Positions 2,490 through 13,467 of a stretch of 15,630 nt of DNA are shown here, piece after piece. Numbering within the stretch: position 1 is the stretch's first letter; every line of letters begins with the position of its first letter. The stretch comes from a virus. Taxonomy: Duplodnaviria; Heunggongvirae; Uroviricota; Caudoviricetes. Position numbers and translations under genes: made by a program. The notes beneath the pieces are model-generated. The model had not been told where the DNA came from. It ran no database searches and saw only the letters and a program-made list of their open reading frames with translations. The DNA is taken from the IMG/VR virus record IMGVR_UViG_2574180220_000001; one strand, written 5' to 3'.

Positions 2490-2685
2490 TTCTGATCCTC
2501 TTCAAAAGGCTACCTGTTACTGGTCGATTTAAGTCAACCTTTACCGCTGATTCGTGGAACAGATACTCTCTTCCATCCTTAACCGGAGGAGGGAATATCC
2601 TGCACTCGCGTACCCATCGACGAACTGTTTCAAGGCTTCTTGGGCGTCGCTGGCGTGCGTTCCACTCCTGAAGTGTCAAGTACAT
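2467..2685 (-). CDS. xis: Excisionase Xis
   Basis: 72-aa ORF MYLTLQEWNARQRRPRSLETVRRWVRECRIFPPPVKDGREYLFHESAVKVDLNRPVTGSLLKRIRNGKKAKS, matching lambda Xis; overlaps int start. Confidence 0.95.
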   Translation of the reverse strand: MYLTLQEWNARQRRPRSLETVRRWVRECRIFPPPVKDGREYLFHESAVKVDLNRPVTGSLLKRIRNGKKAKS

Positions 2686-2711
2686 CGCAAAGTCTCCGCA
2701 ATTACACGCAA

Positions 2712-2735
2712 GAAAAAACCGCCATCAGGCGGCTT
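2712..2735 (-). terminator. Putative intrinsic terminator hairpin (GCCGCC-UGAU-GGCGG followed by U6 on the minus-strand transcript)
   Basis: Seen in sequence: GC stem with 4-nt loop and a run of six T on the minus strand; overlaps the stop codon of the 55-aa ORF upstream of xis. Confidence 0.4.
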
Positions 2736-2892
2736 GGTGTTCTTTCAGTTCTTCAATTCGAATATTGGTTACGTCTGCATGTGCTATCTGCGCCCACAGC
2801 ATCCAGTGGTCATAGCAGTCGCTGATGTTCTCGGCTTCGATAACTCTGTTGAATGGTTCTCCATTCCATTCACCTGTAACTCGGAAGTGCAT
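2725..2892 (-). CDS. Small hypothetical protein (lambda orf-55-like), 55 aa
   Basis: Hand-translated minus-strand ORF MHFRVTGEWNGEPFNRVIEAENISDCYDHWMLWAQIAHADVTNIRIEELKEHQAA; below the 60-aa cutoff of the ORF track. Size and position between xis and ea8.5 match lambda. Confidence 0.6.
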   Translation of the reverse strand: MHFRVTGEWNGEPFNRVIEAENISDCYDHWMLWAQIAHADVTNIRIEELKEHQAA

Positions 2893-2980
2893 TTATCATC
2901 GCCATAAAACAAAACTCGCCGTAGCGAGTTCAGATAAAAGAAATCCCCGCGAGTGCGAGGATAGTTACTTGTTCATATTA

Positions 2981-3262
2981 TTAATCGTCAATGTATTTTG
3001 AGCATTGTGGGCAATCATCGATCCCACAATACGATTCATATGCATCCTTTATTGCGTCGCGGGCTTCAGTAAGAGTATTGAATAAGTTGCAGCTATTATC
3101 TTTTTGATATAGGTAAGTTCCTAATTTATAAGCAGAAGAAGCATCATTTCCGCTGTCTAAAATTACATCGTTATGGATTCTGCACCTTGCAAGAACTCCT
3201 GATCCCATAAGGGTCTGCATAGCCCATTGCTCTTGATCTTCACACAAATCATGAATGCTCAT
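2981..3262 (-). CDS. ea8.5: Ea8.5-like protein (93 aa, C-terminal Cys-rich motif)
   Basis: Track ORF 2981..3280 begins at a GTG; the ATG at 3262 (MSIHDLCEDQ...) has a GAGAGG Shine-Dalgarno and gives 93 aa, the size and position of lambda ea8.5. C-terminus CGIDDCPQC. Confidence 0.75.
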   Translation of the reverse strand: MSIHDLCEDQEQWAMQTLMGSGVLARCRIHNDVILDSGNDASSAYKLGTYLYQKDNSCNLFNTLTEARDAIKDAYESYCGIDDCPQCSKYIDD

Positions 3263-3376
3263 TTCAACACCTCTCTTCACGTTTCACACACGTTAAGATT
3301 AACAGTGTTTTTACATGCTTTGGGAGATTTATTTTATAAAAACTCTTTTAATACAAATAGATATAATAGTTCACTA

Positions 3377-4105
3377 TTATAGCTCCTTTAATCGAGGCGG
3401 TTCTGGTAGAGGCATCCAGTGGGTTACACCGCCAATTGGCTCATCGTCGTCGTACTCCAATGCGGCTATATAGAACCCGTCACGACGAGAATAAGAAATC
3501 CCGGACATTACAATGCCATCCGAAACAACAATAATGTCACCCGTTTCTTTCGGCATTCGCTCACTACAGCTTATCCAACCATCCGGAGTCACCGGAAGCG
3601 AGAACGGCAGCACATCTCTGTGAACAAGTTTTTGCTGTGACAGGTTATCCAGAACTTTCTGTACTGCTGCATCACCGAATACACCAAGCGCATCTGCCAT
3701 AACTCCTACAACCTGATAAGCCTCAGCGCATACCGTGGATAAACCATCCGGAATTACCGGAGAGTTACGGTCCTTGCGGTAAATCCGGCATGTACAGGAT
3801 TCATTGTCCTGCTCAAAGTCCATGCCATCAAACTGCTGGTTTTCATTGATGATGCGGGACCAGCCATCAACGCCCACCACCGGAACAATGCCGTTCTGCT
3901 TATCAGGGAAGGCGTAAATTTCTTTCGTCCACGGATTAAGGCCGTACTGGTTGGCGACGATCAGCAATGCGATGAACTGCGCATCGCTGGCATCACCTTT
4001 AAATGCCGTCTGGCGAAGAGTGGTGATCAGTTCCTGTGGGTCGACAGAATCCATGCCGACACGTTCAGCCAGCTTCCCAGCCAGCGTTGCGAGTGCTGTA
4101 CTCAT
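3377..4105 (-). CDS. Chimeric ORF: N-terminal ~115 aa of Bet (Red-beta annealing protein) fused in frame to a non-Bet C-terminus ending in a DUF551-like motif (VTHWMPLPEPP)
   Basis: Residues 1-115 (MSTALATLAGKLAERVGMDSVDPQELITTLRQ...NESCTCRIYRKDRN) match lambda Bet; the sequence then diverges completely (SPVIPDGLSTVCAEAY...GGVTHWMPLPEPPRLKEL). No exo gene lies downstream. Junction near plus coordinate 3760. Confidence 0.8.
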   Translation of the reverse strand: MSTALATLAGKLAERVGMDSVDPQELITTLRQTAFKGDASDAQFIALLIVANQYGLNPWTKEIYAFPDKQNGIVPVVGVDGWSRIINENQQFDGMDFEQDNESCTCRIYRKDRNSPVIPDGLSTVCAEAYQVVGVMADALGVFGDAAVQKVLDNLSQQKLVHRDVLPFSLPVTPDGWISCSERMPKETGDIIVVSDGIVMSGISYSRRDGFYIAALEYDDDEPIGGVTHWMPLPEPPRLKEL

Positions 4106-4110
4106 CCGTT

Positions 4111-4527
4111 TTATACCTCTGAATCAATATCAACCTGGTGGTGAGCAATGGTTTCAACCATGTACCGGATGTGTTCTGCCATGCGCTCCTGAAACTCAAC
4201 ATCGTCATCAAACGCACGGGTAATGGCTTTTTTGCTGGCCCCGTGGCGTTGCAAATGATCGATGCATAGCGATTCAAACAGGTGCTGGGGCAGGCCTTTT
4301 TCCATGTCGTCTGCCAGTTCTGCCTCTTTCTCTTCACGGGCGATCTGCTGGTAGTGACGCGCCCAGCTCTGAGCCTCAAGACGATCCTGAATGTAATAAG
4401 CGTTCATGGCTGAACTCCTGAAATAGCTGTGAAAATATCGTCCGCGAAATGCCGGGCTGATTAGGAAAACAGGGAAGGGGGGTAGTGAATGCTTTTGCTT
4501 GATCTCAGTTTCAGTATTAATATCCAT
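4111..4527 (-). CDS. gam: Gam (RecBCD inhibitor), 138 aa
   Basis: [15 protein letters not shown]...[10 protein letters not shown] matches lambda Gam; internal Met (MNAYYIQ) corresponds to the GamS start. Confidence 0.95.
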
Positions 4528-4625: not shown

Positions 4626-4758
4626 TTTTTGGGACTCCTGGCTGATTAAGTATGTCGATAAGGCGTTTCCATCCGTCACGTAATTTACGGGTGATTCGTT
4701 CAAGTAAAGATTCGGAAGGGCAGCCAGCAACAGGCCACCCTGCAATGGCATATTGCAT
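4594..4758 (-). CDS. cIII: CIII (FtsH/HflB inhibitor), 54 aa
   Basis: Hand-translated [54 protein letters not shown] with AAGGAG Shine-Dalgarno; below the ORF-track size cutoff. Confidence 0.9.
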   Translation of the reverse strand: MQYAIAGWPVAGCPSESLLERITRKLRDGWKRLIDILNQPGVPKNGSNTYGYPD

Positions 4759-4785
4759 GGTGTGCTCCTTATTTATACATAACGA

Positions 4786-4808
4786 AAAACGCCTCGAGTG
4801 AAGCGTTA
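4786..4808 (-). terminator. Weak terminator-like hairpin between ea10 and cIII (short stem followed by U5 on the minus transcript)
   Basis: Seen in sequence: AACGC...GCGTT stem around an XhoI palindrome, then TTTTT on the minus strand. Could correspond to a pL-operon terminator; weak. Confidence 0.3.
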
Positions 4809-4830
4809 TTGGTATGCGGTAACGCCGCGC

Positions 4831-5199
4831 TCAGGCGGCTTTGATAGTCATATCATCTGGATCAAATATTCCTGATGTATCGATATCGGTAATTCTTATT
4901 CCTTCGCTACCATCCATTGGAGGCCATCCTTCCTGACCATTTCCATCATTCCAGTCGAACTCACACACAACACCATATGCATTTAAGTCGCTTGAAATTG
5001 CTATAAGCAGAGCATGTTGCGCCAGCATGATTAATACAGCATTTAATACAGAGCCGTGTTTATTGAGTCGGTATTCAGAGTCTGACCAGAAATTATTAAT
5101 CTGGTGAAGTTTTTCCTCTGTCATTACGTCATGATCGATTTCAATTTCTATTGATGCTTTCCAGTCGTAATCAATGATGTATTTTTTGATGTTTGACAT
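4831..5199 (-). CDS. ea10: Ea10 (lambda Ssb-like protein), 122 aa
   Basis: 122-aa ORF MSNIKKYIIDYDWKASIEIEIDHDVMTEEKL... matching lambda Ea10 in size, sequence and position. Confidence 0.9.
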   Translation of the reverse strand: MSNIKKYIIDYDWKASIEIEIDHDVMTEEKLHQINNFWSDSEYRLNKHGSVLNAVLIMLAQHALLIAISSDLNAYGVVCEFDWNDGNGQEGWPPMDGSEGIRITDIDTSGIFDPDDMTIKAA

Positions 5200-5381
5200 C
5201 TATTCATATCCTCATAGATAAAAAATCGCCCTCACACTGGAGGGCAAAGAAGATTTCCAATAATCAGAACAAGTCGGCTCCTGTTTAGTTACGAGCGACA
5301 TTGCTCCGTGTATTCACTCGTTGGAATGAATACACAGTGCAGTGTTTATTCTGTTATTTATGCCAAAAATAAAGGCCACTA

Positions 5382-5582
5382 TCAGGCAGCTTTGTTGTTC
5401 TGTTTACCAAGTTCTCTGGCAATCATTGCCGTCGTTCGTATTGCCCATTTATCGACATATTTCCCATCATCCATTACAGGAAACATTTCTTCAGGCTTAA
5501 CCATGCATTCCGATTGCAGCTTGCATCCATTGCATCGCTTGAATTGTCCACACCATTGATTTTTATCAATAGTCGTAGTCAT
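5382..5582 (-). CDS. ral: Ral (restriction alleviation protein), 66 aa
   Basis: MTTTIDKNQWCGQFKRCNGCKLQSECMVKPEEMFPVMDDGKYVDKWAIRTTAMIARELGKQNNKAA matches lambda Ral; 183-bp spacing to ea10 as in lambda. Confidence 0.92.
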   Translation of the reverse strand: MTTTIDKNQWCGQFKRCNGCKLQSECMVKPEEMFPVMDDGKYVDKWAIRTTAMIARELGKQNNKAA

Positions 5583-5687
5583 ACGGATAGTCCTGGTATT
5601 GTTCCATCACATCCTGAGGATGCTCTTCGAACTCTTCAAATTCTTCTTCCATGTATCACCTTAAATAGTGGATTGCGGTAGTAAAGA

Positions 5688-5909
5688 TTGTGCATGGCCC
5701 GTCTGAAAAAGAACAACAGCGATTTGCACGATTTATTAGTAGATTATTATATAGTCGGTATGACATTCATGTCACTGGCAGGTAAGCATTGCTGCTCTGA
5801 TGGTTATATCGGGAAAAGGTTACAAAAGGCTGAGGGCATAATTGAAGGGATGTTAATGGCATTAGATATCCGGTTAGAGATGGATATCGTTGTTAATAAC
5901 TCTAATTAA
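5688..5909 (+). pseudogene. 5'-truncated remnant (C-terminal ~71 aa) of an antiterminator Q gene of the phage 82 / DLP12 QuuD type
   Basis: [71 protein letters not shown] resembles the C-terminus of Q82/QuuD as I recall it; frame is closed by a TAA just upstream; lies immediately upstream of the porin and lysis genes, where Q sits in DLP12/PA-2-type phages. Lambda-like sequence ends at about 5693. Confidence 0.55.
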
Positions 5910-5928
5910 TACGCCAATTATTTACTAA

Positions 5929-5960
5929 AAGTTATTAAAAATGGGGCGTTGAAACGCCCC
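5929..5960 (-). terminator. Intrinsic terminator downstream of the porin gene (GGGGCG-UUUCAA-CGCCCC then AUUUUU on the minus transcript)
   Basis: Seen in sequence: 6-bp GC stem followed by a U-tract on the minus strand; the last of four consecutive hairpins 3' of the porin gene. Confidence 0.5.
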
Positions 5961-6097
5961 CAAAAATAAAGGGTAATATATAACAGAAGGTTTATATAGT
6001 TAGAAGCAAGGTTGTGCTTCTAAAGGAAGTGGCTTGAGGGAGCCACTTATATGTTGGGGAGGCAAAGCCTCCCACAACATATCTTTTAGTAATCAAA

Positions 6098-8482: not shown

Positions 8483-8940
8483 ACAGAGTAACCGCGATTA
8501 TCTCCGCTCTGGTTATCTGCATCATCGTCTACCTGTCATGGGCTGTTAATCATTACCGTGATAACGCCATTACCTACAAAGCCCAGCGCGACAAAAATGC
8601 CAGAGAACTGAAGCTGGCGAACGCGGCAATTACTGACATGCAGATGCGTCAGCGTGATGTTGCTGCGCTCGATGCAAAATACACGAAGGAGTTAGCTGAT
8701 GCTAAAGCTGAAAATGATGCTCTGCGTGATGATGTTGCCGCTGGTCGTCGTCGGTTGCACATCAAAGCAGTCTGTCAGTCAGTGCGTGAAGCCACCACCG
8801 CCTCCGGCGTGGATAATGCAGCCTCCCCCCGACTGGCAGACACCGCTGAACGGGATTATTTCACCCTCAGAGAGAGGCTGATCACTATGCAAAAACAACT
8901 GGAAGGAACCCAGAAGTATATTAATGAGCAGTGCAGATAG
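8479..8940 (+). CDS. Rz: Rz inner-membrane spanin (i-spanin)
   Basis: [55 protein letters not shown]... matches lambda Rz; ATGA overlap with the R stop. Track lists 8467 as an alternative upstream start. Confidence 0.9.
8699..8881 (+). CDS. Rz1: Rz1 outer-membrane lipoprotein spanin (o-spanin), embedded in the +1 frame of Rz
   Basis: [60 protein letters not shown]; lipobox LVVVGC and proline-rich region; fully nested inside Rz as in lambda. Confidence 0.9.
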
Positions 8941-8971
8941 AGTTGCCCATATCGATGGGCAACTCATGCAA

Positions 8972-12692: not shown

Positions 12693-12724
12693 ATAAAAAA
12701 TCGCCATGAAAGAGCTTCATGGCG
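12693..12724 (-). terminator. Hairpin with U-tract on the minus strand (CGCCAUGAA-loop-UUCAUGGCG then AUUUUUU)
   Basis: Seen in sequence: 9-bp stem followed by a T-run on the minus strand, inside the AT-rich non-coding region; no obvious upstream minus-strand gene. Confidence 0.3.
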
Positions 12725-13467
12725 AGTACATAAACGTACAAAATGTGATGAAAGTAGAGTGGCGTAAGCCACTATATTAAGATATGACAATAGCGAAGAA
12801 AAGTAAATAACATTTTATGGACGTTTAATTGTTAATTATAAAAACTAGAGTGCCCGATATTGTTTATCTTGCTTTAAAATAATGTACTCAAACCAAATTT
12901 TTGAGCTAAAAGCTCAAATAATATAAATGCAATGATAATGTTTAATAAGACAATTAGCTTGCTTTGTATTTTCATTTCGGAATACTGTTAAGTAACTTTG
13001 ATGACCCTAACAATAGATCGGAATTTTCTTAGGGTCAATGGTCAATGTTTTTGCTTGCAAAGCAAATGTTTTGGTGGTTATAAGTTGTCTTAATATAGTC
13101 ACGCATGCAACTTGTTCCATGCGGAGATTAAAGATTGGAATATAACGCGAAGATGGAATTAAATTACATTTGCAATAACCAATTTATTATTACTCAATAA
13201 TTACCGATATTATTATTGTAAATTAATCATTAGAGTGCAAAAAGAAATGTAACGGCAAAATAAGAGGACGATAGCTGAGAAAAAAGCGTGCTTTCCCAAT
13301 CTGGGGCAAATCACGTCTGAATGACACCTGAAAACAGGTGGTAGCCTCAAGAAGGCTTGGAATATTCTTCTTTAATGTTATGTAATTCATTGATTTTTCG
13401 TGTACGATTTTAAGACATTTATTCCAAGAAAAATTTTTAACTCTTTGATTTTTCGACTCTGTATCAT

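Follow-up and report, generated by a model that had tools for sequence, protein, structure and literature searches.

An A/T-rich inverted repeat between a Bet::DUF551 fusion gene and ea8.5 is probably an incidental symmetry at a gene end

Lambda's exo-xis region remains poorly understood. Several predicted terminators lie within it, and none is predicted between ea22 and ea8.5 (PMC4195576, Table 4). The fold of Ea8.5 itself is a homeodomain/zinc-finger hybrid that may bind nucleic acids, and the protein affects phage promoters (PMC7093339). Here, we describe an inverted repeat that lies just upstream of an ea8.5 allele in the window, by which we mean the whole 15,630-nt stretch of DNA that was analyzed (IMG/VR record IMGVR_UViG_2574180220_000001). 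We find that the inverted repeat is a real sequence symmetry, but on balance we regard it as an incidental A/T-rich one at a gene end, without a dedicated function. The genes and sites that define its surroundings are as follows.

3377-4105, minus strand: in-frame fusion ORF of 242 aa, combining the N-terminus of Bet (RecT family) with the C-terminal portion of a dATP/dGTP-pyrophosphohydrolase/DUF551 gene (Pfam)
3263-3376, minus strand: 114-nt spacer separating the fusion ORF from ea8.5 and invariably found with this ea8.5 allele as a fixed module
2981-3262, minus strand: ea8.5 allele, 93 aa (Pfam PF20735, lambda alignment, tblastn)
2685-2467, minus strand: xis, downstream of ea8.5
2489-1419, minus strand: lambda-type int, after xis
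1392-1411: Int arm sites P'1 and P'2, AGGTCACTAT and CAGTCAAAAT (consensus match)
1371-1383: IHF H' site of attL, TATCAATTTGTTG (consensus match)
1331-1345: attL core GCTTTTTTATACTAA, beyond int and with ybhC next (sequence match)

The names that the initial annotation gave to the flanking genes, a Bet::DUF551 ORF and ea8.5, are borne out by Pfam: the fusion ORF carries a RecT domain at aa 24-99 and a DUF551 domain at aa 176-237. The product of the ea8.5 allele aligns with lambda Ea8.5 at 41% identity. The spacer reaches up to the ea8.5 ATG, and GC content measured over 3263-3390 is 28%. Within ea8.5 it is 0.34-0.44, compared with about 0.5 in the neighboring genes. Positions 1331-1411 form an intact lambda-type attL beside ybhC, and therefore the element sits at the lambda attachment site. 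On the other side, only about 500 nt lie between ral (5582-5382) and the gene of a 360-aa Gram-negative porin that follows it (7180-6098). Because this interval has no ORF of at least 70 aa on the N-gene strand, the immunity region seems to be absent. The prophage looks like a decayed remnant, similar to that in strain ACN002.

The inverted repeat spans the boundary between the fusion ORF and the spacer, where three features overlap.

3362-3381, no strand: perfect 8-bp inverted repeat TATAATAG-TTCA-CTATTATA (direct reading and repeat scans)
3359-3384, no strand: extended 26-bp near-dyad AGATATAATAGT-TC-ACTATTATAGCT, with 11 of 12 arm positions complementary (repeat scan)
3371-3379, minus strand: three tandem in-frame stops, TAA-TAG-TGA, that end the fusion ORF (sequence reading and ORF end)

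An independent scan re-found the perfect 8-bp repeat with its 4-nt loop, as first reported, and only the earlier coordinates and composition need small corrections. The arms occupy 3362-3369 (TATAATAG) and 3374-3381 (CTATTATA) around the TTCA loop at 3370-3373. The repeat had been placed within 3281-3376, a range that contains most of it but leaves out its last 5 nt. It had also been called AT-only, whereas each arm holds one G or C, and the stem consists of seven A-T pairs and one G-C pair. The arms of the near-dyad (3359-3370 and 3373-3384) are separated by 2 nt, and the plus-strand letters at 3359-3384 are 5'-AGATATAATAGTTCACTATTATAGCT-3'. The right arm of the palindrome overlaps the last sense codon and the stop of the minus-strand fusion ORF, and the 5 nt that lie within the ORF comprise 2 nt of CTA (3382-3380) and the TAA stop (3379-3377). 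The mRNA-strand sequence around the end of the fusion ORF is ...AAG GAG CTA TAA TAG TGA ACT ATT ATA, and the three stop codons make up most of one palindrome arm plus the loop.

This gene end has a counterpart in other phages, whose DUF551 genes end in ...CAGGAGGTGAAGTAATGAAC, with the start of the next gene overlapping the stop. The corresponding sequence in the window, AAGGAGCTATAATAGTGAAC, is identical to it at 14 of 19 positions. This comparison raises the possibility that one palindrome arm is what is left of a stop/start overlap that has decayed, although we offer it as a lead and not as a demonstration. An 8-codon ORF (MNYYIYLY) also starts here on the minus strand, with its GTG at 3374-3372 in the hairpin loop and AAGGAG, a consensus Shine-Dalgarno sequence, 8 nt upstream (3371-3388). 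Its arrangement resembles the overlapping stop/start (GTAATGAAC) found after the DUF551 genes of other phages. Nothing supports this mini-ORF as a gene, and it is probably a vestige of that overlapping arrangement.

How unusual is such a symmetry? Perfect 8-bp repeats with loops of 3-8 nt are expected 1.7 times per window in dinucleotide shuffles, and seven distinct ones are observed. Locally, when the 128-nt stretch 3263-3390 (28% GC) is shuffled, the 8-bp repeat has P = 0.015, and shuffles of 3263-3400 give P = 0.003 for the 11/12 dyad. Dyads matching at 11/12 with gaps of 0-8 nt are expected 0.36 times per window, and at least one appears in 24% of shuffles. The window contains five extended dyads of 11/12 or better, including the attL core at 1332. 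Because five are seen against 0.36 expected, and because at least one of them (the attL core) is functional, extended dyads of this size in the window are enriched for real sites. The palindrome is thus locally somewhat beyond chance and mildly unusual, and both its local rarity and the window-wide excess of dyads count against our incidental reading. However, these statistics are not compelling for function, as the feature was chosen by eye out of 15.6 kb. Further extended inverted repeats (11/12 or better) and hairpins in excess of shuffles are located at 5308-5335, 8939-8966, 12699-12727, and 6000-6060.

A hairpin directly at the end of the upstream cistron could act on the leftward transcript, between the DUF551-type gene and ea8.5, as a weak intrinsic terminator, a pause site, or a structure that stabilizes the 3' end. 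Without N antitermination, ea8.5 expression would then be reduced. The stem is followed on the transcribed strand by TCTATTTG, in which 5 of 8 nt are T in an interrupted run that barely satisfies the tail rule of our scan, and the precedent of several predicted terminators punctuating the lambda exo-xis region (PMC4195576, Table 4) points the same way. The stem itself argues otherwise. The terminator consensus scan of the window did not report the palindrome, whose single G-C pair and -6.1 kcal/mol on the mRNA (minus) strand fall short of the stem criterion of at least three G-C pairs and, typically, -8 kcal/mol or lower. Its z-score is -0.95, with 32 of 200 shuffles folding as well. As DNA, the hairpin amounts to -4.5 kcal/mol, and folding of the whole spacer gives z = -0.97. 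Moreover, the stop codons lie inside the stem, so a terminating ribosome occupies it, and lambda has no terminator at the corresponding position. We therefore agree with the original judgment that the palindrome is too weak for an efficient terminator, and we consider a role of this kind in termination, pausing, or 3'-end stability unlikely.

The same scan did find terminator-like hairpins farther downstream.

2912-2962, minus strand: two tandem terminator-like hairpins (2962-2943 and 2931-2912) directly after ea8.5, equivalents of lambda t3/t4 (scan)
2735-2716, minus strand: terminator-like hairpin after a small ORF at 2892-2725 (scan)

These hairpins have G/C-rich stems and T runs, with folding energies of -12.1 and -13.0 kcal/mol for two of them; the one at 2962-2943 has -12.1 kcal/mol and z = -4.1. 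The three in 2716-2962 match the predicted lambda terminators t3, t4, and t5 (PMC4195576, Table 4). With its lower GC content and the terminator-like hairpins after it, ea8.5 is moron-like in look. A search of Rfam returned no family at or above the gathering threshold, only sub-threshold chance matches away from the palindrome, the best overlap being mir-277 at 3301-3348 (21.8 bits against a threshold of 43).

The palindrome arms are rich in promoter-like hexamers. TATAAT occurs at 3362-3367 (plus strand) and 3381-3376 (minus strand), and TATTAT occurs at 3368-3363 (minus strand). Could a weak promoter use one of these as its -10 element? Such a promoter on the minus strand would drive ea8.5 as a moron-like cassette, with a promoter of its own, a low-GC gene, and tandem terminators, in keeping with its GC content below that of its neighbors and the two terminator-like hairpins behind it; on the plus strand, it would produce an antisense RNA. 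The perfect TATAAT on both strands is suggestive, as is the minus-strand TATTAT (5/6), which lies 17 nt from a TTAAAG (3/6). This last pair, TTAAAG-17-TATTAT, is the best minus-strand candidate at 8/12, which is also the highest score in a looser promoter scan, where no candidate reached 9/12. A consensus scan of the window found no promoter overlapping the palindrome. In sigma-70 terms, the palindrome supplies a -10 hexamer but neither a -35 element at 16-18 nt nor a TG extension; the -35 regions that go with the perfect TATAAT hexamers score at most 3/6. Matches of this quality are expected in sequence of 28% GC, and we regard a promoter here as rather improbable.

Alternatively, the 26-bp dyad could be a site for a dimeric DNA-binding protein, with Ea8.5 itself as a candidate acting on its own expression. 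The symmetry is that of an operator (8/8 in the perfect repeat and 11/12 in the extended dyad, with the local P of 0.003 given above), the dyad begins 100 nt upstream of the ea8.5 start codon, and the fold of Ea8.5 and its effect on phage promoters (PMC7093339) would be compatible with such a role, although DNA binding by Ea8.5 is only putative. The initial annotation had likewise proposed a protein-binding operator. However, the dyad overlaps no credible promoter and stands alone. A search of the window for a second copy of the palindrome with up to three mismatches yielded a single further match, which had all three, and half-sites are not enriched (14 observed, 18.7 expected). No equivalent dyad is conserved upstream of the lambda-type ea8.5 alleles. 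A comparison with known binding-site motifs was also negative. The Int arm-type consensus C/A-AGTCACTAT has no match with two or fewer mismatches at 3355-3390, and the IHF consensus WATCAANNNNTTR has none with one or fewer in 3263-3400; these searches recovered P'1 and P'2 and the attL H' site, respectively. The GTTCACTAT of the palindrome resembles AGTCACTAT but has an extra T, a 1-nt insertion, and was rejected as an Int arm-type site, and an IHF site at the palindrome was rejected as well. On these grounds, we find a protein-binding site quite improbable.

A more specific version combines the two preceding ideas. The 26-bp dyad would be the operator of a self-contained, moron-like ea8.5 cassette, whose weak promoter, with TATTAT at 3368-3363 in the palindrome arm as its -10 element, would be controlled by a dimeric protein, possibly Ea8.5. 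If this were true, a prophage that is repressed or has decayed could express ea8.5 without relying on pL, and the gene would be autoregulated. We view this candidate as a long shot.

Does conservation of the palindrome indicate function? Of 5,426 complete E. coli genomes, 110 carry the stretch 3230-3420 (95-100% identity); the annotation of the upstream gene is dATP/dGTP pyrophosphohydrolase domain, DUF551, or ead/Ea22-like, and ea8.5 lies downstream. In IMG/VR, about 50 contigs have it, and the loci collected there were 51 with ea8.5 and 49 with the palindrome context. The stretch was also found in one other Escherichia species representative (GTDB) and in 14 metagenome contigs, the latter detected with a pattern that leaves the palindrome positions free; further copies were sampled from protein-cluster relatives and the contigs carrying them. 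None of 50 viral-contig loci departs from the window at more than two positions within the 140 nt upstream of the ea8.5 ATG. A pattern built on the flanks alone recovered 113 copies, and the palindrome is identical in all 113. These relatives are 98-100% identical, with 1-2% of sites differing from the window. Among 26 haplotypes, 30 of 436 positions vary, including none of the 20 palindrome positions where 1.4 would be expected (P(0) = 0.24), and the spacer is no more variable (4 of 99 sites) than the adjacent coding sequence (21 of 279), a point that also counts against the incidental reading. Because the relatives are so alike, invariance of the palindrome among them carries no information. 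Absence of the palindrome from genomes with conserved flanks had been put forward as what would refute the proposal. The palindrome is never absent where the flanks are conserved, but all these copies are near-identical, so the comparison is powerless.

More distant sequences offer little to compare. The GenBank phage set contains no phage with this ea8.5 allele, and the more distant alleles are of the lambda type only (41-44% identity), with unrelated spacers. The lambda ea22-ea8.5 spacer is alike in its place in the gene order, between an ea22/DUF551-type gene and ea8.5, and in being non-coding. However, at 191 nt it cannot be aligned with the 114 nt of the window, and it contains neither the palindrome nor a dyad at the stop codon. 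A check of this spacer had been proposed for the palindrome; absence from lambda is confirmed, but the lambda flanks are likewise not conserved. The only 7-bp repeat in the lambda spacer is lost in a slightly diverged lambda-type allele. Since the lambda spacer is unrelated and its own repeat is not conserved, there is no family-wide dyad in ea8.5 leaders. Outside its present context, the palindrome pattern was found only in unrelated viral contigs, almost all of them A/T-rich (23-45% GC).

Several rearrangements have affected this region. In E. coli FDAARGOS_1337, an IS1 lies in the A/T-rich spacer just upstream of ea8.5 (2568-3265 of the extracted stretch), and similarity to the window ends at about 3281. 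The ea8.5 of E. coli ACN002 is disrupted by an IS2 (4730-5958 of its stretch). In IMGVR_UViG_2925919700_000004, an unrelated upstream sequence is fused to residues 17-93 of ea8.5, and the entire spacer has been lost together with the palindrome, which is another deletion in the region. Two further landmarks concern the fusion ORF.

3765/3766, no strand: deletion joint of the fusion ORF, a 2-nt overlap of two homologies (sequence comparison)
3396-3427, minus strand: conserved 32-nt coding 'linker' encoding the DUF551 C-terminal motif HWMPLPEPP (sequence comparison)

From 3300 to 3766, the window matches the pyrophosphohydrolase/DUF551 gene of strain ACN002 with 100% identity, and over 3765-4200 it matches lambda bet/gam at 98.4%. 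Through the in-frame deletion, the initial third of bet now runs into the C-terminal portion of the pyrophosphohydrolase/DUF551 gene, and the rest of bet, exo, and the exo-xis genes have been removed. The fusion joint was not seen in the 5,426 complete E. coli genomes, none of which covers at least 80% of 3300-4300. The linker is the point at which differing upstream gene bodies and downstream modules are joined. The DUF551 genes of Stx phages, P22-like phages, other lambdoid phages, and E. coli match the window down to 3396 and then diverge, while similarity to the ead/Ea22-like gene of strain 19A14 runs from 3427 leftward.

These coordinates bear on the suggestion that the palindrome is a recombination hotspot that promoted the exchange of modules or the nearby deletion. 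Between the palindrome and the deletion joint lie 385 nt, a distance that refutes the proposed link between them. The recurrent mosaic junction with the DUF551 genes of other phages, at 3396/3395, is only 14 nt from the palindrome, and a weak residual similarity (the 14/19 described above) continues through the first arm and loop to 3369. However, the junction falls outside the palindrome and in the coding linker, which is common to different gene bodies and explains module exchange. Judging from these alignments, the linker rather than the palindrome is a plausible substrate for such exchange. Moreover, all 113 copies are intact in the same context, and the rearrangements that could be placed (the IS1 at about 3281 and the ea8.5 fusion described above) lie outside 3362-3381. 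In E. coli, extrusion and cleavage of palindromes need far more than an 8-bp A/T stem. A hotspot role is accordingly very improbable.

With no sign of terminator, promoter, operator, or recombination-site function, the palindrome is most likely ordinary. The symmetry would arise at the boundary between the A/T-rich stops (TAA TAG TGA) that end a DUF551-type gene and the ea8.5 module with its 28% GC leader. In a phage of this type that was still intact, to judge from lambda, it would be transcribed leftward within the long pL read-through transcript and would form only a marginal hairpin, which a terminating ribosome or an elongating polymerase would melt. The 114-nt spacer and ea8.5 appear to form a single module, recent and nearly clonal, that moves among the lambdoid prophages of E. 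coli, and the palindrome is inherited unchanged because the two travel together.

On present evidence, the palindrome matters little, and nothing about it would surprise a specialist. It illustrates how eye-catching palindromes come from A/T-rich gene ends with tandem stops and how perfect conservation among near-clonal prophage modules has no weight. A function, if it had one, would make it the first cis-regulatory element attributed to the part of the exo-xis region beside ea8.5 and could explain pL-independent expression of ea8.5 in lysogens.

How, then, does the locus compare with the systems it most resembles? Like the Rho-independent terminators predicted within lambda's exo-xis region (t3, t4, and t5; PMC4195576), the palindrome would form a hairpin with a T-rich tail at the end of a cistron on a leftward transcript. 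Unlike them, it pairs seven A-U and one G-C at -6.1 kcal/mol, compared with -9 to -14 kcal/mol for their G/C-rich stems, went undetected by the scan, and occupies a position where lambda has no terminator. With the repressor operators of lambda, 434, and P22 (OL/OR), it shares a dyad of about 20-26 bp in the lambdoid early-left region. It differs from those operators in being single-copy, in overlapping no promoter, and in having no sequence similarity that we could find. Finally, like the 'linkers' at lambdoid module junctions described under modular mosaicism, it marks a gene boundary beside a recurrent mosaic junction. There, however, the shared sequence is the coding stretch 3396-3427, whereas the palindrome is found in no other contexts and belongs wholly to the ea8.5-side module.
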